Notes under the pieces: generated by a model
The model's database searches: none
Told to the model about the DNA's origin: nothing
What the model saw: the letters and a program-made list of their open reading frames with translations, nothing else
Part shown: in pieces, positions 1,879-52,356 of the stretch
Position numbering within the stretch: the first letter of the stretch is position 1
Layout: each line of letters begins with the position of its first letter
Origin: Pseudomonadota bacterium
Lineage (GTDB): Bacteria > Pseudomonadota > Gammaproteobacteria > Steroidobacterales > Steroidobacteraceae
Direction of reading: 5' to 3'
Assembly (NCBI GenBank): GCA_025355245.1
Contig: JANXZZ010000043.1
Coordinates: 18,016 to 82,015 of the forward strand
DNA: 64,000 bases
Program-made: the position numbers and the translations under genes

Positions 1879-2406
1879 CTATTTTGCGCGTGTGAGCGTG
1901 TAGGACGCGAACGTCGTGACGCGACCCGCCGTGTCCTTCGACTCGATCAAGAGCGATCCGCTCGCGCCGTCCGCCGCAATCGTCAGCGTGTCCCGGAACG
2001 TCGCTTCGGCGTAGGGAATCTCGAACACGAGCGTCTGCTGGTCGCGGTGGCCGGTACCCACGACGCGAGCGCCGGCGGCGCCGAAGCGATCGAGCCAGTG
2101 GACAACGTAATCGCCGGCCTTGGGGTCGAATCCGAAAAAGACGTCGGCGGCGTAAGCCGGTGGCCTCGCGGCATCGACCATCGACAGGCACAGCCAACCG
2201 TCGGCGAGCGTCCAGCGGCCCCGCGCGGAGTACGCGACCGGGGTGTGGCCGACAGCGCCGGTCATCCGCCAGCGCCCTTCCAGCCGGGCGAGGAATGGGT
2301 CGTGCGCAAGAGCCGGCGGGGCGGCGATCGACGCGGACAGGCCGGACGCGACGAGTAGGCCGCCACCGATGCAGCCGAGAAGTCTGCTCCGCACGCGCTC
2401 GGACAT
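1879..2406 (-). CDS. Hypothetical exported protein (possibly DUF1579-like beta-barrel)
   Basis: Distal part of ORF 1879..2646. ATG at 2406 (MSERVRSRLLGCIGGGLLVASGLSASIAAPPALA) gives a signal peptide. The upstream ORF extension is Arg-rich and overlaps the divergent gene. Family assignment is weak. Confidence 0.6.
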   Translation of the reverse strand: MSERVRSRLLGCIGGGLLVASGLSASIAAPPALAHDPFLARLEGRWRMTGAVGHTPVAYSARGRWTLADGWLCLSMVDAARPPAYAADVFFGFDPKAGDYVVHWLDRFGAAGARVVGTGHRDQQTLVFEIPYAEATFRDTLTIAADGASGSLLIESKDTAGRVTTFASYTLTRAK

Positions 2407-2620
2407 TGCGCATCTCTCCCCGAGCGGCGGGCGCGCGGCGCGCCGTCCAACGAGACTAGCGTACGCCTTCGGCTTGCTGCAACGCGAGATGGGACCCCGC
2501 AGCAGAGTACCGAGACGCCGGGTGCGGGGGACGCGCGCAAATCTGCACGAACGGGCCAATTTCCCGACTCGATTTTGCGGCCGGCTGGCGGCTGACTGGT
2601 ACCGCACCCCGCAGTGCAGG

Positions 2621-4186
2621 ATGGCGCAGCGCGCCGGGACCGCCATGTTCGCGCTTCACGGCTCGGCCGCTCTCGTGCTCGGGTATGGGATCGTGCTCAG
2701 CGCCGCGCTCGCGGCGGTGTGTGCACGCGGCGCAGGGCCGCGCGCACTCTTGCTGGCGCCGCTCGGCGCACTCGGCGGCCTGGTCGCGGGCGCGCTGGTC
2801 GGCGGACTCGCGCTGGCGGCGGCCGCTGCGCTGCTCAGCGGATCGCCGTCGCGCGGCGTCGCCGGCTTGGTGATGGCGACCGCCCTCCTGAGCGCGGGTG
2901 TCGCAACCGGACGGTGGCTGAGTCCCCGGCTCCAGGGCGACCGGCACAAGCGCGGCACCACCTTTGCCAACTCCGGCGCCCGCCGGCGCGCCGAGGCTGG
3001 CGCGGCGATCCGTTTTGCGGGCCTCGCCGTGACCGCCGCGGACGAGACCAAGCACTTCAAGCTCGTCGGCACGACGGGCACCGGCAAGAGCACGGCGATC
3101 CGCTCGCTGCTGGCGGCGGCGCTCGCGCGCGGCGACCGCGCGGTGTTTGCGGATCCGGACGGCGGCTACCTGGCGCGCTTCCACGACCCGGTGCGCGGTG
3201 ACGCGATCCTTAATCCCTTCGACTCACGCGCGCGCGCGTGGGACCTCTTCCAGGAGCTGCGCACACCCTACGATTTCGACCAGCTGGCGCGTTCCCTCGT
3301 CGGAGAAGGCACTGGCGCGGAGCAATCGTGGCGCGCCTACGCGCAGACGCTCGTGGCGGCCGTCATGCGGCGCGCGCACGCGAACGGGGTTCGTGACATC
3401 GGCGAGCTCTACCGACTGCTGACGGCCGCGCCACTCGAGGAGCTGCGGGCGTTGCTCGACGGCTCGCCCGCCCAGCCGTTCCTCGACGCCGGCAATGAGC
3501 GCATGTTCGGCTCCGGGCGCGCGGTCGCGACCGCGCGCCTGACCGCCCTCGACTACTTGCGGGTGCAAAGCGCTGCCGCTTTTTCAATCCGCGACTGGGT
3601 GGAGAAGGGCTCCGGCGCGCTCTTCCTGCCCTACCAGGCCGACCAGATCGCGGCGCTGCGCTCGATCATCTCGACGTGGATGCGGATCGCGATTTTCCAG
3701 ACGATGAGTCAGGGCGAGCGCGACCATCGGCTGTGGTTCGTTATCGACGAGCTAGATGCGATCGGCGCGATCGACGGGCTAAAGGACGCGCTGGCGCGAC
3801 TCCGGAAGTTCGGCGGGCGCTGCGTGCTCGGTTTCCAGTCGATCGCGCAGCTGTCGGCGCTGTACGGTCCGTCCGACTCGCAGACCATCATCGAGAACTG
3901 CGGCAACACGCTGATCCTGCGCTGCTCGGCGAGCGAGCAGGGCGGTACCGCGCGCTTCGCCTCGCGGCTGATCGGCGACCGGGAAATCGTGCGCGACACC
4001 GTCTCGCGCAGCCAGGGTGGCGGAATCCTCGGCGGGCGGCAGGGCTCGCTCAGCATCGGCAGCCAGCACGTGATTGAACCCGCGGTGCTGCCGTCGGAGA
4101 TCGAGCAGCTGGCGGATCTTCGCGGTTTCGCCAAGCTTGCCTCGCAGCCGGCCTGGGCGAGCGTCGTGCTCAACCCACTGGCCTAG
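2621..4186 (+). CDS. Type IV secretion coupling protein-like ATPase (VirD4/TraD/TrwB family, DNA-binding domain type)
   Basis: ORF 2243..4186. Plausible starts are ATG 2621 or 2645, followed by Gly/Ala-rich TM segments. Walker A FKLVGTTGTGKST, Walker B RLWFVIDELDAIG, and a GFQSIAQL block typical of T4CPs. Confidence 0.8.
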   Translation: MAQRAGTAMFALHGSAALVLGYGIVLSAALAAVCARGAGPRALLLAPLGALGGLVAGALVGGLALAAAAALLSGSPSRGVAGLVMATALLSAGVATGRWLSPRLQGDRHKRGTTFANSGARRRAEAGAAIRFAGLAVTAADETKHFKLVGTTGTGKSTAIRSLLAAALARGDRAVFADPDGGYLARFHDPVRGDAILNPFDSRARAWDLFQELRTPYDFDQLARSLVGEGTGAEQSWRAYAQTLVAAVMRRAHANGVRDIGELYRLLTAAPLEELRALLDGSPAQPFLDAGNERMFGSGRAVATARLTALDYLRVQSAAAFSIRDWVEKGSGALFLPYQADQIAALRSIISTWMRIAIFQTMSQGERDHRLWFVIDELDAIGAIDGLKDALARLRKFGGRCVLGFQSIAQLSALYGPSDSQTIIENCGNTLILRCSASEQGGTARFASRLIGDREIVRDTVSRSQGGGILGGRQGSLSIGSQHVIEPAVLPSEIEQLADLRGFAKLASQPAWASVVLNPLA

Positions 4187-12023: not shown

Positions 12024-13781
12024 CTACTCCATATCGGGGTAGGGTCCCTTGCCGCCCTCGGCGATGAAGCGATCGACGCGCGCCTCGAGAACCGGAAGCG
12101 GTACCGAGCCCATTTGGAGGATCGCGTCGTGGAACGCGCGAATGTTGAACTTCGCACCGAGGGCTTTCTCGGCCTTTGCGCGGCTCTTCAGGATCGAGGT
12201 TTCACCGAGGTAGTAGGAGAGCGCCTGGCCGGGCCAGGAAATGTAGCGATCGACCTCGGTCGAAATCTCGTGCTCGGGTAGCGCCGTGTATTCGCTCAGG
12301 TACGCGATGGCGCGATCCCGCGTCCAGCCCTGCGCGTGCATCCCCGTGTCGACGACGAGGCGGGCGGCGCGCCACATCTGGTAGCCGAGCATTCCGAAGC
12401 GGTCGTAGGGCGTGTCGTACATTCCCATTTCCACGCCGAGCACCTCACAGTACAGCGCCCAGCCCTCGCCGTATGCAGATATATAGGTGTGCTGGCGGAA
12501 CTCGGGCTGGGCCCTGTGTTCCGCTGCGATCGAGGTCTGGAAGGAGTGGCCCGGCGCCGACTCGTGCAGGGTCAGCGCGGTCAGGTTGTAGAGCGGTCGC
12601 GTCTCGACGTGGTAGGTGTTGAGCAGGTACAGCGTCGGCCCGCCGCGGCCGGCCGTGTAGAAAGGGGCCATTTCGTCCGGCACGGGCTTGATGGCGAATC
12701 GCGCTCGCGGCAGGTAGCCGAAGAACTGCGCCGCCTTGCCGTCGAATGTCTTTGCGATCCACGCCGCGCGCATCAGGAGTTCTTCCGGTGTCTTCGCTGC
12801 AAAGCGCGGATCGGTGCGCAGGAACTTGAGGAAGGCGGGGAAGTCGCCCTTGAAGCCGGTCTCTTTCATCGCCGCGAGCATTTGCGCATGGATCCGCGCG
12901 ACCTCGTCCTCGCCGAAGGCGTGGATCGCATCGGAAGTCATATCGAGCGTCGTGAATTCGCTGATCTTCGACTGGTAGTACGCTTTGCCGTCCGGAAGCT
13001 CGTAGGCGGCGAGCGTCTGGCGCGTGCCGGGTACGTACTCGGTGCGGATGAACTTGAGCAGCTCGACGTAGGCAGGTTGGACCGCGTCGTGGATCGCGGC
13101 GACCGCGTCCGCGCGAAGCGTCGCCTGCTCGGCCGCCGCGATACCGGGCATGTCCTTGAACGGTGAGTAGAAAAGGCTCGCCTCCGGCGTCGCGTCGGTG
13201 ACCGGAGTGATCGAGGCCTCGAGTCCGCCCATCGTCACGCGCGGCGGCGTGAACCCGCGCTTGAGACCCGCGCGCATCTCCTCCGTCTGCTCGTGAAAGT
13301 ACCGCGGCAGGTCCCGCATCAGGGAAATCCAGTTCTTGTATTCCTGCTCCGAGCGATAGCTACGCCGCGCCATGTAGCTGAGATCGGTCCAGAACATCGA
13401 GTCGGCGTTGACCGGCATTTCGTAGTCACGGAAGCGCTGGCTGGCGATGAGCCCCTCGATCTGCGGACGATAGACGTCGTAGTTGACCTGCTCGTCGGCG
13501 GAAAGCTCCGCGCGCGGGATATCCTTCAGCTTCGCGAGCACGTCTTCCCAGTGGTGCAGGCGCGCTTCCTGCGCGGCGGCGTCGACCTTCGGAAAATGGT
13601 CGGGGACCGGCTTCTGCGAGTCCTCGCCGTCGGGAAGCTGCTCGAGGCGCCACTTCCACTCCTCCGCGTAAAGGGACTGCAGCCGCGCGTCGGCGCTTGG
13701 TGGCTTCTCGGCACAGCCACCGGCCAGGAGACTGAGGGCGAGGACGGCCGCGAGTGAGGCGGCCTGGTGACGGGTGCGCAT
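12024..13781 (-). CDS. DUF885 family exported protein (lipoprotein-like), paralog 1
   Basis: ORF 12024..13913. ATG at 13781 gives MRTRHQAASLAAVLALSLLAGGCAEK (lipobox-like LAGGC). Conserved blocks LTLHESAPGHSFQ, GEGWALYCE, EVDRYISWPGQALSYYLGE. Confidence 0.85.
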   Translation of the reverse strand: MRTRHQAASLAAVLALSLLAGGCAEKPPSADARLQSLYAEEWKWRLEQLPDGEDSQKPVPDHFPKVDAAAQEARLHHWEDVLAKLKDIPRAELSADEQVNYDVYRPQIEGLIASQRFRDYEMPVNADSMFWTDLSYMARRSYRSEQEYKNWISLMRDLPRYFHEQTEEMRAGLKRGFTPPRVTMGGLEASITPVTDATPEASLFYSPFKDMPGIAAAEQATLRADAVAAIHDAVQPAYVELLKFIRTEYVPGTRQTLAAYELPDGKAYYQSKISEFTTLDMTSDAIHAFGEDEVARIHAQMLAAMKETGFKGDFPAFLKFLRTDPRFAAKTPEELLMRAAWIAKTFDGKAAQFFGYLPRARFAIKPVPDEMAPFYTAGRGGPTLYLLNTYHVETRPLYNLTALTLHESAPGHSFQTSIAAEHRAQPEFRQHTYISAYGEGWALYCEVLGVEMGMYDTPYDRFGMLGYQMWRAARLVVDTGMHAQGWTRDRAIAYLSEYTALPEHEISTEVDRYISWPGQALSYYLGETSILKSRAKAEKALGAKFNIRAFHDAILQMGSVPLPVLEARVDRFIAEGGKGPYPDME

Positions 13782-14204
13782 GAAAGGTCCCTTGGTTCTT
13801 TTTGTCGCGGCACGGTGGGCGTGCGGCGACGCCGACTTTAGTCCGATCGCCGCGAGCAAGTCCAACGGCAGCGCGCCCGCTGCGGCGGCACGGCGCTCGC
13901 GGGTCCGCTCCATATATGAAGCGTGGGCGCGCTCGGATCCGCGACCGGAGGGCCCCGACCGGCAATGCCTTCAGCCCCAGGGGCTTAATTCCTGCAGTGA
14001 CGGCGCCTCGGGCGCGGAACCCGGCGAAGGCTCCAGGAGCCTCCAATTGAGGGCTCCCGGCCCGATCCGCCGCGTGAAGAGAAGATTAAGCGCCGGATTC
14101 TGCGTCAGCGACTCGCCGGGGCGTGCGTTACCTCTCAGTGAACGGTACAGGTCCGACCGACAATCGCCACCCTGCACCGAGCAGTACCAACCGGGAGGAA
14201 TCGA

Positions 14205-14783
14205 ATGAAAACCTTGATCGGAATCGGCGCCGTTAGCGCGCTCTTGTTCGCCACCACCGCTCTCGCCGCCGGCCCGAATACCGACGAAGTCACGCAGCGC
14301 GACGTGAACCAGCAGAATCGCATCGAGCAGGGCCTGAAGTCGGGCCAGCTCAACACGAAGGAAGCCGGTCAGCTCGAGCACCAGGAAGCGAAGATCGATC
14401 GCACCGAGGCGCGCGACGAGAAGAACGGCAAGCTCTCGGCCGCCGAGACTGCCCACATCAACCAGATGCAGAATAAGGCCAGTGCCGATATCGCCGCGGA
14501 TAAGCACAACTCGGTGAAGGGCAACCCGAATTCGGCGTCGTCGAGGCGCATGCAGGCTGACGTGCAGCGCAACGCGAACCAGGAATCGCGCATCGAGCAG
14601 GGTGCGAAGTCCGGGTCGCTGACCAACAAGGAAGTGGGCTCGCTGCAGCGTGGCCAGGCGCACGTTGATCAGAAGGAAGCTCGCGCGGCGAAGGACGGCC
14701 ACGTCGGAGCCGGCGAACAGGCCGGTATCCAGAAGTCGGAGAATCGCCAGAGTCGCAAGATCTATCGCAAGAAGCACAATTGA
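14205..14783 (+). CDS. Exported charged repeat protein, unknown function
   Basis: ORF 14205..14783, preceded by GGGAGGA. Signal peptide MKTLIGIGAVSALLFATTALAA. The mature part is two copies of a ~70-aa Q/E/K/R-rich unit. Confidence 0.75.
   Translation: MKTLIGIGAVSALLFATTALAAGPNTDEVTQRDVNQQNRIEQGLKSGQLNTKEAGQLEHQEAKIDRTEARDEKNGKLSAAETAHINQMQNKASADIAADKHNSVKGNPNSASSRRMQADVQRNANQESRIEQGAKSGSLTNKEVGSLQRGQAHVDQKEARAAKDGHVGAGEQAGIQKSENRQSRKIYRKKHN
14295..14780 (+). repeat. Intragenic tandem duplication (two ~70-residue units, each ending KHN)
   Basis: Unit 1 is QRDVNQQNRIEQGLKSGQLNTKEAGQLEHQEAKIDRTEAR...ADKHN. Unit 2 is QADVQRNANQESRIEQGAKSGSLTNKEVGSLQRGQAHVDQKEAR...RKKHN. Aligned by eye. Confidence 0.7.
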
Positions 14784-14909: not shown

Positions 14910-15317
14910 ATGGTTGCGCCAAAGTTTCGGCTGCGAATCGATTTCGGCCCGCACGCATCGCTCGGTCCCGGAAAAATCGCGCTCCTCGAAGCCGTCCGCG
15001 AGATGGGCTCACTGTCAGAGGCCGCCCGCAAGCTCGCGATGAGCTACCGGCGCGCCTGGTTGCTGCTCGCCGAGATCAACGGGTCCTTTGCGGAACTGGC
15101 CACCCTGAGCGCCGTCGGCGGCAGCGGCGGCGGCGGCATGCAGGTCACGGCATTCGGCCGCGCGCTCATCTCAAGCTACCGTGAATTCGAGCAAGCGGTC
15201 GGGGCGATCGGCACGCGTCGGTTTGCCGCGATCGCGGCGCGCGTCGTGAAGCAGAAGACGCCCGGACGCACTGTCTCGCCGCGGCCGTTGAAGCGGCGGG
15301 TCGCGATCCGCGGGTGA
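14910..15317 (+). CDS. Stand-alone ModE N-terminal-like winged-helix (LysR-type HTH) regulator
   Basis: ORF 14910..15317. GPGKIALLEAVREMGSLSEAARKLAMSYRRAWLLLAEIN matches the ModE/LysR-type HTH pattern. No Mop/TOBE domains follow. Confidence 0.7.
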   Translation: MVAPKFRLRIDFGPHASLGPGKIALLEAVREMGSLSEAARKLAMSYRRAWLLLAEINGSFAELATLSAVGGSGGGGMQVTAFGRALISSYREFEQAVGAIGTRRFAAIAARVVKQKTPGRTVSPRPLKRRVAIRG

Positions 15318-15343
15318 ACGTCGGGGTCGGGCTCACGCGCCGG

Positions 15344-16207
15344 TCATGTGGTGGAGCGCCGCGCCGAGCGCAGCATCGCGAAAGCGGCATATGCGACGAC
15401 GATGATCACGAGGTAGCGCAGCCACTCGAGCGGCAGCGACTTCACGATGAACGCGGCGATGCCGACTCCGAAAAGTCCCGCCAGCGTCATGCTGATCGCC
15501 GCCGAGAAGTCCAAGCGCCGGGTGGCGAGGAACTTGATACCGGCGATCGGTTGCAGAAGGGCGCACGACCCCATCATGATCGGGAACGCGGCGATCGGCT
15601 GCATGCCGAGGAGTGCCAGCAGAATCATGCACGGCGCGTAAAGGCCGATGCCGAGCGTCATAAGCGCACCGAGCACGAAGTTCGCGCCAACCGCGACGCC
15701 GAACTTCCAACCGCTGAGTGCGAGTGCGTCGCCGCCGCCCGGCAGCATGTGGCGGGTGACCGCGGCGAATACGCACGCGGCAATCAACAGTGCGACGCCC
15801 ATGCCGATCTGGATCGCGCGTCTCGGCAGCCGACTGACGACGCCCGCGCCTAGCCACGCGCCGAGCGCCGCGCTCGAGATGGTCGCCGCGAGCAGCGCAG
15901 GATCGATCTCGATGGACTTGACGAATATCGTCGCCTCCGCGACCCCGGACGCGGCCAGCCCGACGTTGAGCGTGCCGGGGATGAGCTCGTCCTTCACCAT
16001 GTGGAACAGCTTGAACAGGGCGGTCGTCGGCGCGAACGAGCCGATGCCGAGCGTGTCCAAGAAACTTGTGAGGGCGCCGACAGCCATCGCGCCCAAGGTC
16101 GGCCGGTTCGACTCCGGGCCGAGCCGGGCGGCGCGCACCCACGCCATCGCCAGGAAAAGTGCACTGACGCCGAGCGCGATGAAGAATCCGATCTGAGCAG
16201 CATTCAT
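15344..16207 (-). CDS. TauE/SafE family sulfite-exporter-like membrane protein
   Basis: ORF 15344..16207. Polytopic, Gly/Ala/Leu-rich, with the two-halves architecture typical of TauE/SafE (DUF81) permeases. Confidence 0.8.
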   Translation of the reverse strand: MNAAQIGFFIALGVSALFLAMAWVRAARLGPESNRPTLGAMAVGALTSFLDTLGIGSFAPTTALFKLFHMVKDELIPGTLNVGLAASGVAEATIFVKSIEIDPALLAATISSAALGAWLGAGVVSRLPRRAIQIGMGVALLIAACVFAAVTRHMLPGGGDALALSGWKFGVAVGANFVLGALMTLGIGLYAPCMILLALLGMQPIAAFPIMMGSCALLQPIAGIKFLATRRLDFSAAISMTLAGLFGVGIAAFIVKSLPLEWLRYLVIIVVAYAAFAMLRSARRSTT

Positions 16208-16371
16208 GTAATAACTGTCCGTGGATGACAGCTCGGGAACCCATTCTCGGTACGTCTCCGGGCGGTCCAGCCGCCGTCGCCGCCGTGTGCGTTCGAGAGT
16301 TTATTGCGCCGCAACAAGAACCTTCGTTTGATGCGATGACACCGCGTCGATATGCGCACGATATCGGAAAT

Positions 16372-17757
16372 TCACCCGGTCGCCCGCGACGCCTTGGGCG
16401 CGGCGCCCAAGCCCGCCACTGCCGCGTCCTCGACGTCACCGGCGAGACGCCTTTGCCGGGTCTCGGGCGCCCAGAGGTAGCAGATCCCGCCCCCGATCAC
16501 GAGCACGCCGACACAGACGCCGAGTGCCGCGCGCACGCCGACGTCGTCCACCAATACCGGCAGCAGAAAGGTCCCGATTGCCGAGCCGATCCTGCTCGCG
16601 GCGATCGCGAGGCCGATTCCGGACGCTCGCAGGTCGGTCGAGAACAACTCGGGAAGGTACACGTACACGAGGTTCGAGGCCGCCGACAGCGCGATCGCGA
16701 AGAGTGAGAAAAGCCCGAACATGATCCCGGCGGGCAGTCGCGGAAACACCGACAGCACCAGCATCGCGGCGGCCGCGACCGCGAAGCTGCCGACGAGAAA
16801 GTTGCGTCGGGACACGCGATCCACCAGCACGAGACCGAAGACGGCACCGCCTAGCAGGGACGCGTTGTAGAGGAGCCCGCCTGCGTGGCCGCCGTGAGCA
16901 TTCAGCGCCGCCATGACCTGCGTTACGAACGTTCCCACCGCGAAGTACGGGATGACCTGGCATGTGAAGAATGCGCACCCTACCAATGTGCGGCGTCGCC
17001 AGGTCGGCGAGAAGAGCTGCCGCCAGCGGCCCCGGTGGCGATCGCCGACCGGTCCGCGGAGCGGCGGCAGCACGCACTCCCCGAGGCGGGTGCGGACCAC
17101 TTCCGCGGCGCGTGCTTCGTGGCCGTGATCGACGAGCCACAGCGGTGATTCCGGCAGGGTCACGCGCACCGGCCAGATCAGGAGACACGGGACTGCGCTC
17201 GCGAGCAGCATCCATCGCCAGGACTCCGGATCGCCGCTCGACAGCGCAACGCCGACAGCGAACGCTGCCGCAAAGCCCCCGGCCCACGCGACCGAGAGGA
17301 GGCTCATCACTGCGCCGCGCAGGCGGCGTGGCGTGAACTCCGTCAAGAGTGCCTTGCTGACGACGTAGTCGGTGCCGAGCAGAAACCCGATCACCAGGCG
17401 CAGGCCCAGAAGCTCCGCGCTCGTCGCCACGAAGAACTGCAGGACCGAAAGCACGCCGAGCGCTGCCATGTTGAACGCGAAAATGCGCCGTCGCCCGTAC
17501 TGGTCGGCTACCGGTCCCGTCAGGAGCGCGCCTGCAAAAAGGCCTGCGAGCGATGCGCCACCCACCAGGCCGAGCCAGAGCGGCGAAAGCTGCAACTCGA
17601 CGTGTGCGGCGCCGAGCGCGGTGCCGATGATCCCGAGGCCAAAGCCGTCACTGAACACGCCACCCGTGCTCGCGAGCGCGACGCGCAGATGGAATCGTCC
17701 TAGGGGAACGTCGTCGTACTGAATCGGCGGTGAGGCCGAAGGAGATTCCAGGCTCAC
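16372..17757 (-). CDS. MFS transporter (sugar-porter/metabolite:H+ symporter-like)
   Basis: Distal part of ORF 16372..18024. The GTG at 17757 overlaps the upstream TGA (GTGA). Motifs GPVADQYGRRRIFAFN and LPESPLWL. About 12 TM segments. Confidence 0.85.
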   Translation of the reverse strand: MSLESPSASPPIQYDDVPLGRFHLRVALASTGGVFSDGFGLGIIGTALGAAHVELQLSPLWLGLVGGASLAGLFAGALLTGPVADQYGRRRIFAFNMAALGVLSVLQFFVATSAELLGLRLVIGFLLGTDYVVSKALLTEFTPRRLRGAVMSLLSVAWAGGFAAAFAVGVALSSGDPESWRWMLLASAVPCLLIWPVRVTLPESPLWLVDHGHEARAAEVVRTRLGECVLPPLRGPVGDRHRGRWRQLFSPTWRRRTLVGCAFFTCQVIPYFAVGTFVTQVMAALNAHGGHAGGLLYNASLLGGAVFGLVLVDRVSRRNFLVGSFAVAAAAMLVLSVFPRLPAGIMFGLFSLFAIALSAASNLVYVYLPELFSTDLRASGIGLAIAASRIGSAIGTFLLPVLVDDVGVRAALGVCVGVLVIGGGICYLWAPETRQRRLAGDVEDAAVAGLGAAPKASRATG

Positions 17758-18422
17758 CCGGGCCCGTCCGCCGGGTCGAGGTGCGCGCGCTGTGCGAGAT
17801 CGTCGCTGCGCCAGACGTAGAGGGCGGCCAAGGCTGCGGCGCCCGTCCGCATGGCGTGGGGCTCGTGTCGCGCGTGATGAATGACGGTGCCGGGCTCGTG
17901 CCGCCGCCAGCGCGCGTCTCCCTGCAGCCATTCGGCCGTTCCCGACAGCGGCACGTAGATCTCTTCCGCTTCGTGGCGATGGCGTGGATAGAGCGTCTTC
18001 GGACCGAGCAACAGTATTCCGCATGCAATCCGGTCGCTGGTCGCGATACCGTCAAGTCCCACGATCTCGGTCCATCCGTAGGACTGCAGGAACTCAAAGC
18101 CTGTCTCGCCTTCCGAGTAGCTCTGCCGCCACGCCAGATGCGATTCCGCGCGGCGCAGGCTCGCCAGCAGGTCGGCGCAATCCCCGCCCGCGGCGCGCTC
18201 GAGTTCCGCCAGCCAGCGGACGACGGGCAGCGAGGCCGGGACGACTTGGCGCTGCGCAGGCGTGCGCGGCCACCCCGCGAGAAACGGTGCGAGTTCCGCG
18301 GCGTCGCGCGTGAGCAAAAAGTCGCGGCACGCCGAAATCAGGCCGATCACGGGCGAAGCGGCTCCCGGGGTTCGACTGCCGCCGTCATCTGACTTCTGCC
18401 TGCTCCCGACGTCGGCCGCCAT
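17754..18422 (-). CDS. Cupin protein of the DMSP-lyase (DddL-like) family
   Basis: ORF 17754..18422. HLAWRQSYSEGETGFEF...YGWTEIVG...LYPRHRHEAEEIYVPLSGTAEW...HEPHAMRTG...LYVWRSDDL follows the DddL-type cupin pattern (HxHxxxxE plus distal His), as recalled from the family. Confidence 0.7.
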   Translation of the reverse strand: MAADVGSRQKSDDGGSRTPGAASPVIGLISACRDFLLTRDAAELAPFLAGWPRTPAQRQVVPASLPVVRWLAELERAAGGDCADLLASLRRAESHLAWRQSYSEGETGFEFLQSYGWTEIVGLDGIATSDRIACGILLLGPKTLYPRHRHEAEEIYVPLSGTAEWLQGDARWRRHEPGTVIHHARHEPHAMRTGAAALAALYVWRSDDLAQRAHLDPADGPG

Positions 18423-18518
18423 CCTGCTGTACCCCGAGAAGAACCCGGCTCCGGGACCCAGAGCTGATGATAGGCGACCGGCACGGTGCGTCCAATCGAC
18501 CGCGCGCAGAACCGCGCC

Positions 18519-19022
18519 CTACGAAACGAGGGGCGTGAAGTAGGGATTGCCGACGCTCGCAAGCGCCAGGCGCAGGTCCGCGCGACTCGGCGCGACATCG
18601 CTCATCGCGCGCTGCGCGGCGAGAAGCGTCGCGTCTTGATTGTTAGCGTAGAGCAGCTCGAGGTCCTCCGCTGCCGGGTCGACCCAGACGAGGGCAACCG
18701 CCAGCCACTCGGCCTCGGCGCCTTCGGGAAAAACGTCCTCGAGCAAGGCGCGCGTGATTCCGGCAGCGACTCCGGCCTGCGCCGGTCCCCACGTCAGGCG
18801 CTCGTGATGCGCATCGCGCAAGACCGCCTTCGCGATAAAAAGCGTCGGCGGTTTCACCGGCACGTTGGGCTTGAGGACCACCTGGAAAGGAATGTGACCA
18901 GGGCGCGGGCTCGCCGCCGCGAGCACGAACGCACCCGCGAGGATCGCGTTCGGGGCAAGCAGCAGGCTGACGTGCGCGGAGTGCGCGCCGGTGCCCGCGA
19001 AGCCTTCACCGATCCGCAGCAT
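18519..19022 (-). CDS. Formaldehyde-activating enzyme (Fae) family protein
   Basis: Distal part of ORF 18519..19064, ATG at 19022. MLRIGEGFAGTGAHSAHVSLLLAP...VPVKPPTLFI...WGPAQAGVAAGI...VALVWVDP...NPYF parallels the Fae pattern [21 protein letters not shown]...PCKPNTLMF...FGPAQHGVA...HPF. Confidence 0.8.
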   Translation of the reverse strand: MLRIGEGFAGTGAHSAHVSLLLAPNAILAGAFVLAAASPRPGHIPFQVVLKPNVPVKPPTLFIAKAVLRDAHHERLTWGPAQAGVAAGITRALLEDVFPEGAEAEWLAVALVWVDPAAEDLELLYANNQDATLLAAQRAMSDVAPSRADLRLALASVGNPYFTPLVS

Positions 19023-19103
19023 CGAGTCTCCCGTTGAGCACGAGCGTAGCCGCGCACGCGGCACCGCACCCCGCCATCGTCGCGCGAGGGGCCGTCCAGC
19101 ACG

Positions 19104-19454
19104 TTAGCCGATCTTGGGCTCGAGGTGTCGTTCGAGATCGCGCAGTCGATCGTCCCAGCGCTGCGACATCATGTCGAGGTAGCGGCGCGCGACGTCGAGG
19201 CGCCGCGGCTCCACCGTCCAGCGGCTCTCGCGCCCGGCGGCGGCGCGGCGTACGAATCCCGCCGATGCGAGAACGCGCAGGTGCTTCGACACCGCCTGAC
19301 GGCTGAGGCCGAGGCCAGCGGTCAGGCGGGTGATCGACTGGGTCTCGTCCGCGGCGAGGCGCGCGACCAATTCGAGGCGCGTGGGGTCACCGAGCGCCGC
19401 GAACAGTGACGCCGACCGTTCGAGGTCAGCACGGCGGCTGGCCGCTCTGCTCAC
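19104..19454 (-). CDS. ArsR/SmtB family transcriptional regulator
   Basis: Distal part of ORF 19104..19502. The GTG at 19454 overlaps the upstream TGA (GTGA). LFAALGDPTRLELVARLAADETQSITRLTAGLGLSRQAVSKHLRVLASAGFV is a canonical ArsR HTH. Confidence 0.85.
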   Translation of the reverse strand: MSRAASRRADLERSASLFAALGDPTRLELVARLAADETQSITRLTAGLGLSRQAVSKHLRVLASAGFVRRAAAGRESRWTVEPRRLDVARRYLDMMSQRWDDRLRDLERHLEPKIG

Positions 19455-19912
19455 GGATGCCGGCGCAGGTAATCGCCGATCGCCGTTACCTGGTGCGCCC
19501 ACCCCGAGTCGTTGCCCTTGAGCGCCTCGGCGCGGCGCGTGAGCGGGATGCCCTCGAAGCCGGATTCAGCGACGGTGAGCGTGGTCCCGCCCGCCGATTC
19601 CTCCAGCGTGAACTCGACCAGCGTCCGTGGTTCCCGTGAGTAGTCGTGGGTCGGATCGACCGCGTGCGGGTGCCACCGGTAGGAAAAGTAACGCTCCGGT
19701 TCCATCTTCTCGACCAGTAAGCCGATCACGAGGTGTTCGTAGCCGGGGTGAGTGATGCGCCCCTTGATCTCGACTCCCGGCACGAAGGGTTGTTCAAAGC
19801 TCACTTTGAACCACGCGCCGAACTCCTGCGATTCCGTCAGCGCCCGCCACACGCGCGCGCGCGGTGCGCGCAAATGCACGCGCTTCTCAATTCGGTCCTT
19901 CGGTCCATCCAT
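19451..19912 (-). CDS. SRPBCC (AHSA1/Aha1-like) domain protein
   Basis: Distal part of ORF 19451..19993, ATG at 19912. RIEKRVHLRAPRARVWRALTESQEFGAWF...TLVEFTLEE..GGTTLTVAESGF is typical of the SRPBCC partner of ArsR regulators. Confidence 0.85.
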   Translation of the reverse strand: MDGPKDRIEKRVHLRAPRARVWRALTESQEFGAWFKVSFEQPFVPGVEIKGRITHPGYEHLVIGLLVEKMEPERYFSYRWHPHAVDPTHDYSREPRTLVEFTLEESAGGTTLTVAESGFEGIPLTRRAEALKGNDSGWAHQVTAIGDYLRRHP

Positions 19913-19943
19913 CGCCTTCCGCCATCGTGAATACGCCACCAAT

Positions 19944-19992
19944 GGGTTGCATGTTGAACCGGGCTGCGCAGACATGCAACCTGAATGTTGCA
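19944..19992. promoter_or_regulatory. Candidate operator: 10-bp perfect inverted repeat plus a third half-site
   Basis: GGTTGCATGT (19944-19953) and ACATGCAACC (19971-19980), separated by 17 nt. GTTGCAT recurs at 19986-19992. The site lies just upstream of the SRPBCC-ArsR start. Confidence 0.45.
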
Positions 19993-20029
19993 TATAGGCG
20001 TGAACCCCGGGCGCCCTGCCCGGCGCCGG

Positions 20030-21094
20030 TTAGCGACGCGCTTTCAGTTCAAGTTCGAGATTGGCGCACTCGCACCGCACGACCGTGCCGCCGTGTGCCG
20101 CGGAGCTAACCGTGAGCCGCGCGCGGATCGCGCGCGCGCGATCGCGCATCGTTTGCAGCCCGATACCGCCGCGGTGCGCCGGATCCGGCGGAAGACCGCG
20201 GCCGTCGTCGCTGACCTCGATGAGCACGCGTTCGGCGGCGACCACGAGCTTCACCCGCACCTTGCGCGCCGACGCATGCGACAGCGCGTTCGCCAGCGCC
20301 TCCTGAGCAATCCGAAAGAGCTGATTGCGGGTCTCAAGGGAGATTGCGAGAGGCGCCGAGTTGTCCTCGGTGTAGGTGATCCCGAGCGTACTGTTCTGCC
20401 GCACGAGGTCGGCGGTCAGCCCGCGCAGCGCGTCGGAGAGGCCGCTTTGCGCCTCGGCGACCGGGGCGAGGCCGCGCGCGATGTTCTTGCAGCTGGCGAT
20501 CGTCCGTGAGGCGATCGCCGAAAGCTCCTCGAGCTCCGTCGCAAGCTTCGGGTCCTTGGCGGCATGCGCGCGCGCAAGGCTGGCTGCAAGCATCGCGACT
20601 CCGGTCAGCTCCTGGCCGAGACCGTCGTGGAGTTCGCGCCCAAGGCGTCGTTGTTCACGGAGCGTCGCGTCCCGCAGCGCATCCTCCAGCCGCCGTCGCT
20701 CGGTAATGTTGATCCCGATGCTCCACTCGAGCCACCCCGGAATCTTCAGCCGTGCGCCGACATTGAACCACTCGATCGTCCGCAGCGAGCCGTCCTTCGC
20801 GGTCAACTCCCAGACGCAGCTGTACTCCACCGTCCGGCGTCGATCGGCCTCGGCCTGCATCACTTCGCGGTACTTCGTGTCGGGGTACAGGGTCTCCATC
20901 GCCTTCGGATTGCCGATCATCTCCGCCGCGGTATAGCCGGTGGCGCGCTCGCACTCGCTGTTCCAGGCAACGATCAGCCCGCGATCGTCGTAGGCGTCCA
21001 TGAGAACGGGCATTCCCTGCACGATTGTCCGCAGCCGGCGTTCACTCGCCAGCAGCGCAGCGTGCTCACGCGCGTGCTCCGAGGTGTCACTCAT
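20030..21094 (-). CDS. Cytoplasmic PAS-domain sensor histidine kinase (HisKA_3 / HATPase_c)
   Basis: ORF 20030..21094, no TM segments. PAS block ERRLRTIVQGMPVLMDAYDDRGLIVAWNSECERATGY. H-box RELHDGLGQELTG. ATPase block VSDDGRGLP...GGIGLQTMRDRA. Confidence 0.85.
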   Translation of the reverse strand: MSDTSEHAREHAALLASERRLRTIVQGMPVLMDAYDDRGLIVAWNSECERATGYTAAEMIGNPKAMETLYPDTKYREVMQAEADRRRTVEYSCVWELTAKDGSLRTIEWFNVGARLKIPGWLEWSIGINITERRRLEDALRDATLREQRRLGRELHDGLGQELTGVAMLAASLARAHAAKDPKLATELEELSAIASRTIASCKNIARGLAPVAEAQSGLSDALRGLTADLVRQNSTLGITYTEDNSAPLAISLETRNQLFRIAQEALANALSHASARKVRVKLVVAAERVLIEVSDDGRGLPPDPAHRGGIGLQTMRDRARAIRARLTVSSAAHGGTVVRCECANLELELKARR

Positions 21095-21118
21095 CTGTCT
21101 TTCCGCTGATCATTGTTC

Positions 21119-22048
21119 TCAGGTGAGACCTAGGCCGCGCTTGTCCTCGTACCCCAGGGATTCGGCAAAGACCTTGAGGGCGGCCGACAGCATCTTCTGC
21201 CGGTGGTGGACGAGCGCAAAGCGTCTGCTCAGACGGGGTAGCGTCGTCGTGAGCACAACGAGCCGCTTCGCGTCGACATAGTCCTGCACGACCCACCGCG
21301 ACAGGCAACTGAGGCCGAGCCCCAACGCTACGCTGTTTTTGATCGCCTCGGAACTGCCGAGAGTCATGTCGGCGCGCAGGTGATTGAGATGCGGGAGCAG
21401 GGCCTGCTCCGCCGCCTCGCGAGTGCCTGATCCCGGCTCGCGCAGCAGCCAACGAGCCTCGCGCAGGTGTTTGAGGGAGAGCCGGCCGCGAGCCGCCGCG
21501 CGGATCAGCGGATGCCCCGGTGCTGCGACGATGACGAGCTCATCGTCGAGCCAGGGAACCACGGTCAGTTCGGGCGCGTGACAGGGGCCCTCGATGAGGC
21601 CGAGATCGGCCTCGAAGCTGCCAACGGCGGTCGCAACCTCGAGCGTGTTGCCGATGCGCACGTGCAGCCGGGCGTTGGGAACGGCTGCGCGGAATCGCGC
21701 GAGCATTGCCGGAAGCACGTAGTTGCCGATCGTCGTGCTGGCAGCGAGGCGTAGATCGACCTGCAGCCCGCTGTGTTGACCGAGGAAGCCTTCCTCGACG
21801 GTCTTCGCGCCATCGAGCAGCGCGCGCGCGGACGGCAACAGCACGCGGCCGCTGTCGTTCAGCAGCAACCGCCGGCCGACGCGGTCGAAAAGACGTACGC
21901 CGAGCACGCGCTCGAGCTCGTTGATCGCCGCACTGGTGGCGGACTGCGACAGGGAGACCGCCGCTGCCGCCGCGGTCGTCGTACCCGTCTGGGCGACCGC
22001 TCCGAAGATCTGCAGTTGGCGAAGCGTGAGGCGCATCGCGCGGCTCAT
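21119..22048 (-). CDS. LysR family transcriptional regulator (YeiE-like, divergent from a YeiH-family gene)
   Basis: ORF 21119..22048 (alternative ATG at 22036). MRLTLRQLQIFGAVAQTGTTTAAAAAVSLSQSATSAAINELERVLGVRLFDR. Confidence 0.9.
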   Translation of the reverse strand: MSRAMRLTLRQLQIFGAVAQTGTTTAAAAAVSLSQSATSAAINELERVLGVRLFDRVGRRLLLNDSGRVLLPSARALLDGAKTVEEGFLGQHSGLQVDLRLAASTTIGNYVLPAMLARFRAAVPNARLHVRIGNTLEVATAVGSFEADLGLIEGPCHAPELTVVPWLDDELVIVAAPGHPLIRAAARGRLSLKHLREARWLLREPGSGTREAAEQALLPHLNHLRADMTLGSSEAIKNSVALGLGLSCLSRWVVQDYVDAKRLVVLTTTLPRLSRRFALVHHRQKMLSAALKVFAESLGYEDKRGLGLT

Positions 22049-22065
22049 CTAGCTAATAGATAGGT

Positions 22066-22085
22066 AGATTATACAGACATAATCT
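22066..22085. promoter_or_regulatory. LysR-type T-N11-A dyad in an AT-rich divergent promoter region
   Basis: AGATTAT-ACAGAC-ATAATCT (22066-22072 and 22079-22085) contains T(22070)-N11-A(22082). It lies in the locally AT-rich 22049-22166 spacer between the LysR and YeiH-family genes. Confidence 0.5.
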
Positions 22086-22166
22086 GGTTTACGGCTATAT
22101 CGGGCGACTCTACAGTCTGGCGGAGCGTTTGCGCGCCAAGCGGCGGTCACGGAGTCGAACACCAAT

Positions 22167-23228
22167 ATGAGCCATTCTCCGGCCGACACTCGACTACCAG
22201 GACTCGGTCTCGCGGTCGCGATTGCGGTCGCGGCGTTCGTGCTCGGCAAGGTGGGCTGGTTCCTCGCAAACGGGATCAGCGTCCTGACGCTCTCGATAGT
22301 GCTCGGCATGATCGTCGGCAACACGCTCTACCCGCGCATCGCTGCCTCGAGCGCCGCCGGCGTGACATTCTCGAAGCAGTACCTGCTGCGCGCCGGAATC
22401 ATCCTCTACGGGTTCCGTCTCACGTTCCAGGACATCGGCCGCATCGGTGTGGCCGGCGTGCTGATTGACGCGATCGTGCTGTCGAGCACCTTCGTGCTTG
22501 CGGTTGTCATCGGCACGCGGGTCTTCGGGCTCGACAGGAAAACCGCCATGCTGATTGGCGCCGGCAGCTCGATCTGCGGTGCCGCCGCGGTCATGGCCGC
22601 CGAGCCCGTGGTCCGCGGCCGGGCCGAGCAGGTCACCGTCGCCGTTGCGACCGTCGTCGTGTTCGGGACGCTGGCGATATTCCTGTATCCCGCGCTCTTC
22701 CACCTTAATGCCCGCATCATGCTGCTGCCGGTGTCGGCGACCGCCTATGGCCTCTACGCTGGATCGACGATCCACGAGGTCGCACAAGTCGTCGCGGCCG
22801 GGAACGCGATCAGCGACGCCGCGGCGAACACCGCCGTCATCGTGAAAATGACGCGCGTCATGATGCTGGCGCCGTTTCTAATCGTGCTGGCGGCCTATCT
22901 CGCGCGGCGTTCGGACGTCGACGGCGCGACGTCGTCGAGCGGCGGGCAGAAGAGCCGGCCGGCGCCGGTGCCGTGGTTCGCGGTCATCTTCGTGGCGGTC
23001 GCCGGTTTCAACTCCTTGGCGTTGCTGCCTGCGGGAGTCGTCGCAGGGATCATCGACGCGGACACGATGCTGCTGGCGACGGCGATGGCCGCGCTCGGTC
23101 TCAGCACGCACTTGTCGGCCATTCGGATGGCGGGCGTGAAGCCGCTGGCGCTCGCGGCGACCCTGTTCATCTGGCTGGTCGTTGGCGGCGCCGCGATCAA
23201 CGTGGGCGTTGCGGCGCTGCTCCGCTAA
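22167..23228 (+). CDS. YeiH/UPF0324 family putative sulfate-exporter-type membrane protein
   Basis: ORF 22167..23228. Polytopic, with blocks [32 protein letters not shown] and [16 protein letters not shown] typical of the YeiH family. The divergent LysR neighbour mirrors the E. coli yeiE-yeiH arrangement. Confidence 0.85.
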
Positions 23229-50520: not shown

Positions 50521-52356
50521 TTATTCGAGGGCAGGGTACGGCCCCTTGCCGTCTTCGGCGATGAAACGATCAATCCGCGCCTCGAGGACTGGCAGCGGGA
50601 CCGAGCCGAGCTCGAGCACCGTGTCGTGGAATGCACGAACGTTGAATCTCGACCCAAGCGCCTGTTCGGCCTTCGCGCGCGCCCGCTCGATGCTCATCTC
50701 GCCGAGGTAATAGGAGAGCGCCTGCGCCGGCCAAGCGATGTAGCGGTCGACCTCCGTTTCGATCTCGTGATCCGCGAGTGCGGTGTTGTCGTGTAAGTAT
50801 TTCTGCGCCTGCTCCCGGGTCCACCCCTTGGCGTGGATTCCCGTGTCGACGACGAGCCGGGCAGCGCGCCACATCTGGTAAGTGAGCATGCCGAATCGGG
50901 AATATGGCGTCTCGTACATGCCCATCTCGATTCCGAGCTTCTCGCAGTAGAGCGCCCAACCCTCGCCGAAGGCAGAGATATAGACTTTCTGGCGAAAGTC
51001 TGGCTGGTCCTTGTGTTCGAGCGCAATCGACATTTGAAACGCGTGGCCGGGCGCCGACTCGTGCAACGTCAGTGCTGTTTGCACGTAAAGGGGCCGGGAC
51101 GGCAAATCGTAGGTGTTTACCAGGTAGATTCCGGGCCCGCCGCGACCGCCCGTGTAGAAAGGCGCGAGATCCGCCGGTACCGGCTTGATCGCGAAGCGCG
51201 AGCGCGGCAGGTAGCCGAAGTAATCCTTGGCCTTGCCGTCGAATTCCTTCGCAATCCACGCCGCTCGCATGAGCAGCTCCTCCGGAGTCTTCGCGTAGAA
51301 CTGCGGATCGGTCCGAAGGAAGTGCAGGAAGGCGGGAAAATCACCCGTGAACGCGGTTTCCTTCATCACGGCGAGCATCTGCTCATGAATCTTCGCTACT
51401 TCCGACAGGCCAATCTGGTGGATCTGCTCGGGCGTCAGGTCGAGCGTCGTGAATTCCCTAATCTTCGCCTGGTAGTAGGCCTTTCCGTCCGGCAACCGCT
51501 CCGCGGCGAGCTCGCCGCGCGCGCTGGGAATGTATTTCTCGCGCATGAACACGAGCAGCGCCGCGTGCGCCGGAACCACCGACTCGCGGATTGCCTTGGC
51601 GCCCGCAGCGCGCAGCTCCGCCTGCGCGCCGGCCGGAATCACGGCGGGCATCTGCTTGAATGGCGCGTAGAACGGATTGGCCTCGACGCTCGGGGAGTCG
51701 GTCACGATCGTGATGGAGCGGTCCCGCCCAACGAGCGTGATTGCCGGTGGCGTGAAGCCGCGCGCAAGGCCGGCAGCCATGTTGGCAGTTTGCTCGCTGA
51801 AGTATCGCGGGAACTCGTTGAGTTGGCTCAGGTAGCGGGCGTAGTCCTGCTGCGTGTGAAAGGTCTTGCGCGCAGTGCTGACGAGGCTCGACCAAAACGA
51901 CGAGTCGGCGTTGAGCGGCTTCTCGTAGTCCTTGTATTCCTGCGCCGAAATCAGCACTTCTATCTGCTGGCGGTAGATTCCGTAATTTATGGCCTGTTCG
52001 CCCGACAGCTGCTGAACCGGCAGCGCCTTTAGTCTTCCGAGCACGTCCTTCCAGCAAGCGAGGCGCATATCCTGGGTCTTGAGGTCGACCCGCGGCAGGT
52101 GGCCGCTGATCGGCGCCGTCTCGTCGTCTTCTTCCTCGCCGCGGAACTCGGCCGAGCGCCACGCCCACTCGCGCGCGTAGACGGTCCTGAACTGAGCGTC
52201 GGCGGCGCCTTCCGGACGGGTGAGAACGATGCTCGCTCGGGGAGGCTTCCCGCAAGGGGCCGCGATCGCGGAGCCCGGAAGTCCCAACACCGTCAGGAGC
52301 AGCGGCGCGGCCGCGTACCGCAAGCCGCTGGAAATCGAACGAACCGAACGCGGCAT
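50521..52356 (-). CDS. DUF885 family exported protein, paralog 2
   Basis: ORF 50521..52356. Colinear by eye with 12024..13781 over the whole length (LTLHESAPGHAFQ, GEGWALYCE, EVDRYIAWPAQALSYYLGE, and a C-terminus GKGPYPALE versus GKGPYPDME). Confidence 0.85.
   Translation of the reverse strand: MPRSVRSISSGLRYAAAPLLLTVLGLPGSAIAAPCGKPPRASIVLTRPEGAADAQFRTVYAREWAWRSAEFRGEEEDDETAPISGHLPRVDLKTQDMRLACWKDVLGRLKALPVQQLSGEQAINYGIYRQQIEVLISAQEYKDYEKPLNADSSFWSSLVSTARKTFHTQQDYARYLSQLNEFPRYFSEQTANMAAGLARGFTPPAITLVGRDRSITIVTDSPSVEANPFYAPFKQMPAVIPAGAQAELRAAGAKAIRESVVPAHAALLVFMREKYIPSARGELAAERLPDGKAYYQAKIREFTTLDLTPEQIHQIGLSEVAKIHEQMLAVMKETAFTGDFPAFLHFLRTDPQFYAKTPEELLMRAAWIAKEFDGKAKDYFGYLPRSRFAIKPVPADLAPFYTGGRGGPGIYLVNTYDLPSRPLYVQTALTLHESAPGHAFQMSIALEHKDQPDFRQKVYISAFGEGWALYCEKLGIEMGMYETPYSRFGMLTYQMWRAARLVVDTGIHAKGWTREQAQKYLHDNTALADHEIETEVDRYIAWPAQALSYYLGEMSIERARAKAEQALGSRFNVRAFHDTVLELGSVPLPVLEARIDRFIAEDGKGPYPALE

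Follow-up and report, generated by a model that had tools for sequence, protein, structure and literature searches.

Among the enzymes that act on dimethylsulfoniopropionate (DMSP), DddY and DddL alone give the impression of being dedicated to DMSP lysis; the activity of DddQ on DMSP is promiscuous, with a kcat/KM below 1 M-1 s-1, and what DddQ and most cupin-DLLs do natively is unknown (bioRxiv 10.1101/161257). The native role of the DddQ-like cupin-DLLs is thus an open question in DMSP research, as is, in methylotrophy, that of the non-canonical proteins resembling the formaldehyde-activating enzyme (Fae). Apart from canonical Fae and the archaeal group, Fae-like proteins have no known cellular role; functions in sensing, in regulation or linked to folate have been proposed for them, and a fae mutant is not complemented by fae3 (PMC11748545). 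The present analysis concerns a stretch of 64,000 nucleotides (nt) of a Steroidobacteraceae genome (contig JANXZZ010000043.1; hereafter the window), in which a block of five genes encodes an SRPBCC-family protein, an ArsR-family regulator, a Fae-like protein, a DddQ-like cupin and a transporter of the major facilitator superfamily (MFS).

The locus brings two known orphan families together in a new way, without being a categorically new system, and it provides a modest lead on both. Our leading, though tentative, reading is that of a composite locus, in which an auto-regulated SRPBCC-ArsR pair stands before a unit of Fae-like, cupin and MFS genes, perhaps extended by a TauE gene, that would descend from a module with an aldo-keto reductase (AKR) and a succinate-semialdehyde dehydrogenase (SSADH) and would be neither a DMSP-splitting nor a methanopterin-linked system. 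The Fae-cupin-MFS trio is probably a rare form of a nutrient-uptake cluster that is itself widespread and uncharacterised. No paper was found in the literature on Fae-AKR-SSADH clusters or on Fae together with DddL.

Organisation of the block and family membership of its products

The five tightly packed genes are real. All are encoded on the minus strand and, in the direction of reading, specify an SRPBCC/AHSA1-family protein (19451..19912; 153 amino acids (aa); PF08327, 60 bits), an ArsR/SmtB-family winged-helix regulator (19104..19454; 116 aa; PF12840 (HTH_20), 48 bits), the Fae-like protein (18519..19022; 167 aa), the DddQ-like cupin-DLL (17754..18422; 222 aa, or 198 aa from GTG 18350) and a YaaU-like MFS transporter of the Sugar_tr type (16372..17757; 461 aa; PF00083, 169.5 bits). 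The junctions along the block measure -4, 81, 96 (or 168) and -4 nt: the SRPBCC stop and the ArsR start share GTGA at 19451-19454, the cupin stop and the MFS start share GTGA at 17754-17757, and gaps of 81 and 96 nt separate the Fae-like gene from the ArsR and the cupin genes, respectively. An earlier note made from the sequence alone had described these co-directional genes, overlaps and gaps, and all of its coordinates were verified. The larger value for the third junction arises from the public gene calls, which start the cupin at GTG 18350 and leave a gap of 168 nt; either start is possible, as the homologs show no conservation over the first ~25 residues. The block has the usual marks of an operon, being co-directional, with short or overlapping junctions and without terminator-like sites in its intergenic gaps. 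With values of 0.80-0.84, the five genes match the remaining window in GC content at the third codon position (GC3), and a search of positions 15000-20600 against Rfam (E <= 1) gave no riboswitch or leader RNA match.

The Fae-like protein matches PF08714 at 112.9 bits, against a cut-off of 27, over profile positions 1-147 of 159, and its residues 2-142 match the Fae structure 1Y5Y of Methylorubrum extorquens (1Y5Y/1Y60; EC 4.2.1.147) with E = 5e-16. The hallmark blocks GE..G.G..AH, PN..KP.TL and GPAQ.GVA, to which the earlier note had drawn attention, are indeed present. Identity with the M. extorquens enzyme is nevertheless about 30%. The AH motif has an invariant His, while the I-D that follows in M. 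extorquens is V-S in the window and I-N in most of the clade, so that the Asp is exchanged for Ser and Asn, respectively; we take the residues of the AH..I-D segment to be active-site residues of the 1Y60 complex. The neighbours differ as well, being the cupin and the MFS transporter in the window and AKR and aldehyde dehydrogenase (ALDH) genes in the relatives, with no neighbours of the tetrahydromethanopterin (H4MPT) pathway found. With the Fae-like groups 2-4 (Fae2, Fae3 and Fae1-2) the protein shares the standing of a non-canonical Fae homolog of unknown role; those groups were described in methylotrophs, whereas most occurrences of the window clade are in genera that are not methylotrophs and in clusters of catabolic appearance.

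On the equivalog model TIGR03126 the window protein scores 100.8 bits, below the cut-off of 118.05, and its relative in locus L007 scores 96 bits, whereas AKR-linked homologs of Burkholderia, Streptomyces, Meiothermus and Polaromonas, with 128-157 bits, lie above the cut-off. The model was rejected as a discriminator of true Fae because these AKR-linked homologs, from contexts other than C1 metabolism, exceed its cut-off. A 'fae' gene on a plasmid of Azoarcus sp. KH32C (L109:1061-6333) lies beside fhcBADC and belongs to another Fae group, in which AMPE replaces AH and an insertion is present. This protein also passes TIGR03126, and the NCBI model therefore lumps several functionally distinct groups.

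The cupin falls in PF16867 (DMSP_lyase) at 111.4 bits, so that at the level of Pfam both proteins belong to the families proposed for them in the earlier note. That note had further taken the cupin to follow the DddL pattern. The motifs on which it relied, HRHEAEEIY and a distal HAM (within PHAM), are present, but both the motif spacing and the best matches are those of DddQ. The best solved structures are all DddQ (4B29, 5CU1 and 4LA2/5JSO; E about 1e-16, best 6e-17), and BLASTP aligns the window cupin with 4B29 at 31% identity over 162 residues without a gap (72.8 bits), as against 27% identity with gaps (52.8 bits) for the single annotated DddL compared. In the first motif, HRHEAEEIY has the same spacing (HxHxxxExY) as HQHPAEEIY of DddQ, whereas HSHVDIEESY of DddL is one residue longer; the second motif of DddL is also different. 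The window cupin and DddL have the Pfam family and the kind of metal site in common, but the compared dddL gene sits in an acuR-acuI-dddL (TetR-oxidoreductase-DddL) arrangement and the window cupin, placed between Fae-like and MFS genes, has no acuR or acuI neighbour.

Both cupin-DLL motifs, as defined in bioRxiv 10.1101/161257, are found in the window cupin. The six defining residues, namely two His, a Glu and a Tyr in motif 1, a His in motif 2 and a terminal Trp, are all present as H148, H150, E154, Y156, H189 and W204, and are invariant in the subfamily. DddQ (4B29, 5CU1, 4LA2) has the motif-2 His and the terminal Trp in common with it, and differs in its marine Roseobacter setting. In a neighbour-joining (NJ) tree, the only tree made of the cupins, the window cupin groups with soil metagenome sequences in a clade to which neither of the two solved DddQ proteins belongs. 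Members of the subfamily are rare: of 1.84 billion representatives, no more than 59 clusters match at E <= 1e-30. The homologs come from soil and freshwater metagenomes. Judged from these comparisons, the accurate label for the window cupin is a DddQ-like cupin-DLL of unknown substrate.

Genomic contexts of the Fae-like clade and of the cupin

The clade of the window Fae-like protein was scanned with one genome per species, which gave 80 loci whose neighbouring genes were clustered de novo. The loci include Rhizobiales, Caulobacteraceae, Steroidobacteraceae, Collimonas, Comamonadaceae, Aquitalea and Meiothermus. An AKR gene is a neighbour in 64 of the 80, an ALDH gene of the SSADH subfamily in 53 and a gene for a galactonate-dehydratase-like MR_MLE protein in 40; further neighbours are LysR regulators, ABC importers of the OpuAC or the Dpp type, MFS transporters, GMC oxidoreductases and iron-containing alcohol dehydrogenases (Fe-ADH). 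Similar arrangements, with Fae-like proteins 39-44% identical to that of the window, are found on other replicons: those of Burkholderia, Caballeronia and Ralstonia carry fae-AKR-SSADH-MFS strings, and in Streptomyces a betaine-type ABC transporter is followed by fae, an oxidoreductase and SSADH. The AKR-Fae-SSADH-type ALDH core, with or without MR_MLE, GMC and Fe-ADH genes and accompanied by a regulator and an importer, was seen in loci L005, L011-L089, L100, L102-L108 and L113-L135. From their gene content, these clusters of non-methylotroph genera look like an undescribed catabolic pathway.

No gene of the H4MPT pathway was found among about 40 open reading frames of the window, in agreement with the earlier note. 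In the related loci fhc alone was searched for, and no fhcABCD homolog was found in the window or in 136 of them (flanks of ±10 kb or less). The suggestion that the Fae fold has been recruited to another chemistry fits these surroundings, since the clade sits with AKR, ALDH and transporter genes and not with C1 genes. In many non-methylotrophs that can be cultured, the clade belongs regularly to AKR/SSADH/transporter clusters, and this map of its contexts is the more general and more usable result. The names 'DMSP lyase' and 'formaldehyde-activating enzyme' are best avoided when such genes of soil metagenomes are annotated.

A tree built from 120 Fae-like sequences shows the lineage of the window (with L096/97, L006, L007/8/10 and L098) to be monophyletic and nested among AKR-linked homologs, from which we conclude that the Fae-cupin association of this lineage arose once, from an AKR-type module. 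Compared with the clusters of Burkholderia, Caballeronia, Ralstonia, Rhizobiales, Comamonadaceae, Meiothermus and Streptomyces, which are known from annotation only, the window has a Fae-like protein of the same clade (39-66% identical) and a YaaU-like MFS transporter (40%) where they have this or another importer; it differs in having the cupin-DLL and the SRPBCC-ArsR pair and in lacking AKR and ALDH. No homolog of AKR, ALDH, MR_MLE, GMC, OpuAC or Fe-ADH was found elsewhere in the 64-kb window.

The sister of the window Fae-like lineage is found in L099 (2172-8504). Its Fae-like gene overlaps a Peptidase_M14 gene and converges on an S-methyltransferase gene, and a pair of genes for a GFA (glutathione-dependent formaldehyde-activating) protein and a Zn-dependent alcohol dehydrogenase (ADH) lies 4-6 kb away.

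The SRPBCC-ArsR-Fae-cupin-MFS(-TauE) block recurs in five diverged relatives, with Fae-like proteins 68-77% and cupins 48-60% identical to those of the window. Throughout the window lineage, which consists of uncultured soil Proteobacteria, the Fae-cupin-MFS trio is intact, and the 4-nt overlap between cupin and MFS genes is retained in every relative. In L098 the upstream flank differs and the block is still present. Outside this lineage, a cupin lies within 10 kb of the Fae-like gene in only one genome of the 80, that of Aureimonas flava M2BS4Y-1 (L020:18100-18700), the single culturable organism with both enzymes in one string. Here an AKR-Fae-ALDH-LysR-DppABCDF string is closed by a cupin that belongs to the same subfamily and shares 52% identity with that of the window; it starts at TTG and shares a 4-nt TTGA overlap with the stop of an ABC ATPase gene. 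The survey of other genomes that the earlier note had in mind thus recovers the pairing in the five relatives and in A. flava, and shows it to be absent from most of the clade. Together, the window and A. flava tie the two orphan families to each other and to a transporter. We judge chance to be an unlikely origin for two independent insertions into Fae-like clusters, since the cupin subfamily is rare and the cupin is coupled to a transporter gene in each case.

Devosia and Rhizobium have a second ALDH gene at the place of the A. flava cupin. The latter is followed by a DNA-methyltransferase-like gene, and the end of the cluster may therefore have been remodelled.

Stand-alone members of the cupin subfamily (L009, L091, L092, L094) are always divergent to a MatE efflux gene, often followed by DUF2147, and share a conserved neighbourhood of glycogen-synthase and glycosyltransferase genes. 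In all three contexts seen, the subfamily adjoins a transporter gene. The NJ phylogeny was not decisive between replacement and fast evolution of the cupin, the Fae-linked cupins forming only a basal grade.

Along its whole length the window MFS transporter shares 40% identity with the transporter that ends the Burkholderiaceae fae-AKR-SSADH operons, and it also scores 131.6 bits on the organic-cation transporter model TIGR00898. Orthology of the two transporters was considered as proof of descent from the Burkholderiaceae operon; this argument is weakened, as equally close or closer YaaU-like transporters occur without a Fae-like gene. The likeness, as far as the sequences go, is a recurring association and not proof of orthology. 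A co-directional gene for a TauE/SafE-family membrane protein (15344..16207, minus strand; PF01925, 53.6 bits), possibly the sixth of the block, lies 164 nt downstream of the MFS gene, and follows it also in L006, L007, L008 and L098.

The regulator pair and the explanations of the locus

A 10-bp perfect inverted repeat (GGTTGCATGT/ACATGCAACC), which the earlier note had placed just upstream of the first gene, is present at 19945-19954 and 19972-19981, but it consists of the left half of a proximal dyad and the right half of a distal one. It is best regarded as a by-product of two tandem ATGCAAC-N6-GTTGCAT dyads of 7-6-7 form, and not as a functional unit. The distal dyad (19974..19993; ATGCAAC-ATTCAG-GTTGCAT in the minus-strand reading) is a perfect 7-6-7, the proximal one (19933..19952; ATGCAAC-CCATTG-GTGGCGT) lies 21 nt upstream of the SRPBCC ATG, and the two are 41 nt apart from centre to centre. 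Both are kept upstream of SRPBCC in four diverged relatives (L006, L007, L096 and L098), in which the surrounding intergenic sequence is not kept, and the invariant columns of the five-way alignment (A3) are the core bases of the proximal dyad. Their persistence in a diverging region is therefore read as the phylogenetic footprint of a real operator, and the two putative sites are probably the operator of ArsR.

The ArsR protein scores 64.1 bits on NF033788 (cut-off 55) and 32.5 bits on PF01022. It resembles ArsR/SmtB repressors with SRPBCC partners in its HTH_20/HTH_5 winged helix, in the overlap with an AHSA1-family gene and in the upstream dyad, but differs in having no Cys (and two His) in its 116 aa, and it is therefore no thiolate sensor of a metal or metalloid. 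SRPBCC proteins bind ligands, and that of the window is 63-70% identical in the relatives. In L006, a metagenomic relative, SRPBCC and ArsR carry several in-frame stops (L006:2100-2910), which are due either to pseudogenisation of the pair or to assembly errors, while Fae-cupin-MFS-TauE is intact. Caulobacter (L012, L057) has a similar ArsR-SRPBCC pair in an unrelated setting. As the pair is decayed in L006 beside an intact trio and unrelated in position in Caulobacter, it is read as self-contained. The Caulobacter genes were considered as part of a Fae-like locus and rejected, because a ClpP gene lies between.

In the composite reading, then, SRPBCC and ArsR would form a translationally coupled pair, most likely auto-repressed through the two tandem dyads, and the Fae-like, cupin and MFS genes, perhaps with TauE, would be co-transcribed as an uptake-and-conversion unit. 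The parent module would have combined a Fae-like protein with AKR, an SSADH-type ALDH and a transporter; both dehydrogenases are absent from the window lineage, and the DddQ-like cupin would have been inserted between the Fae-like and the transporter genes and become translationally coupled to the latter. The MFS symporter may import a small polar acid or an onium compound, which the cupin, as a metal-dependent enzyme with the full His/His/Glu/Tyr/His/Trp site, would cleave by elimination, and the Fae-like protein would handle, with no need of H4MPT, a product at the carbonyl level, be it formaldehyde or some other aldehyde. The downstream genes may also be controlled by ArsR through read-through, with SRPBCC as its possible ligand-binding partner.

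A number of observations weigh against a common function of these genes, and many of them favour the most serious alternative, which we nevertheless consider unlikely: a coincidental juxtaposition, in which one ancestral rearrangement brought together three unrelated units, namely SRPBCC with ArsR, a Fae-like orphan and the cupin with its MFS gene, which have since been kept together by inherited gene order only and take part in no common pathway. The pairing is limited to one monophyletic lineage and one other genome; in 75 of the 80 representative genomes no cupin lies within 10 kb of the Fae-like gene, and a scan of JGI metagenomes gave 24 Fae-like loci, none with a cupin. The closest cupins, 54-62% identical, stand alone in soil-type contigs beside the divergent MatE gene, with no Fae-like or MFS gene nearby; Fae-like protein and cupin each occur mostly without the other. 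YaaU-like transporters without a Fae-like neighbour are equally similar to that of the window (Cupriavidus 54%, Priestia 40%, Escherichia coli YaaU about 40%). Flanking synteny in the window lineage extends well past the five genes, to YeiH, LysR, a PAS kinase, TauE and DUF885, and much of it may therefore be inherited gene order. The gap between the Fae-like and cupin genes holds a sigma-70-like promoter match (TGGACG-16-TATCAT, 18467..18494, minus strand), one found against 0.2 expected, although a consensus match only. No further copy of the dyads was found before the Fae-like or the cupin gene, all being upstream of SRPBCC, and ArsR control of the trio is not required, because SRPBCC and ArsR appear to be pseudogenes in L006; the earlier proposal of one ArsR-controlled unit is not borne out. 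The Caulobacter pair in its unrelated setting points the same way. Coincidence, on the other hand, accounts poorly for the independent presence of the same rare cupin subfamily in the Fae-like cluster of A. flava, for the persistence of the block in L098 despite a changed upstream flank, with a Fae-cupin gap of just 21 nt there as against the promoter-like match in the gap of the window, and for a trio that is intact where the regulator pair has decayed.

Within the composite reading, a stronger claim is that the cupin and the Fae-like protein act on the same imported compound and constitute a new H4MPT-independent catabolic route. We regard this as doubtful. In such a route, for example, a carboxylate of the beta-substituted or onium kind, such as an analogue of beta-alanine betaine or DMSP that occurs in soil or plants, would lose a leaving group by elimination, and the Fae fold would then catalyse the handling of the carbonyl product. 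If true, a native function would be assigned for the first time both to a non-DMSP clade of cupin-DLLs and to the Fae-like clade of non-methylotrophs.

The earlier note had suggested the uptake and catabolism of a methylated or sulfonium-type osmolyte. In its explicit form, the cupin would free dimethyl sulfide or an amine and an acrylate-type product from DMSP or a related osmolyte, and Fae would capture formaldehyde on a methanopterin- or folate-type carrier; we consider this improbable. The cupin does belong to PF16867 with all six active-site residues, sister Fae-like clusters often contain OpuAC betaine-type ABC transporters, choline-dehydrogenase-like GMC oxidoreductases and ALDHs, the MFS transporter matches the organic-cation model, the anion-exporter-like TauE and YeiH genes are close by, and folate-linked C1 transfer has been suggested for Fae-like proteins (PMC11748545). 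The sister clusters, the organic-cation model and the TauE and YeiH genes hint at onium- or osmolyte-like substrates and save part of the idea, without indicating DMSP. The cupin has its motif spacing and its closest matches in common with DddQ, whose kcat/KM on DMSP is so low (below 1 M-1 s-1; bioRxiv 10.1101/161257), its homologs are of soil and freshwater metagenome origin, and it has no acuI/acuR-type partner, unlike the compared DddL locus. Nor does the formaldehyde branch find partners, as no H4MPT gene was found in the window, no fhc homolog in the 137 sequences and no formaldehyde-producing demethylase or oxygenase in the cluster. Least probable of all is a stress or detoxification locus, in which a toxic electrophile or aldehyde would be detected by ArsR and SRPBCC and rendered harmless by the Fae-like protein and the cupin, with MFS and TauE as exporters of the product: an ArsR-family repressor with conserved putative operators at the head of the block, ligand-binding SRPBCC proteins, the constant MATE efflux neighbour of the stand-alone cupins and the GFA and Zn-dependent ADH genes near the sister locus L099 speak for it, but the MFS transporter is of the Sugar_tr/YaaU/aromatic-acid symporter type, whose characterised members are importers, and not a DHA-type drug exporter, and the clusters in which most of the Fae-like clade occurs combine catabolic dehydrogenases with ABC importers that depend on solute-binding proteins.

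Other genes of the window

Two genes on the plus strand are kept beside TauE in the relatives. The first (14205-14783) encodes a secreted protein of 192 aa with repeats of the form Q..N..RIEQG.KSG.L..KE...L and no family match; the second (14910-15317) encodes a 135-aa helix-turn-helix protein resembling the N-terminal part of ModE, with 66.5 bits on TIGR00637, below its cut-off. On the other side of the block (20030-23228), a PAS-HisKA_3 histidine kinase gene, with no response regulator gene beside it, comes after a LysR gene of the YeiE type, which is divergent to the gene for a YeiH-family putative sulfate exporter; the kinase-LysR-YeiH trio is syntenic in the relatives, except in L098, where a polysaccharide deacetylase gene is found instead.

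Farther away, a lone gene for a TrwB/TraG-type type IV coupling protein (2243-4186, plus strand) has no other conjugation genes visible nearby, and a similar gene occurs in L006. Two DUF885 paralogs (12024-13913 and 50521-52356, both on the minus strand), each scoring above 500 bits, lie amid many peptidase and amidohydrolase genes.

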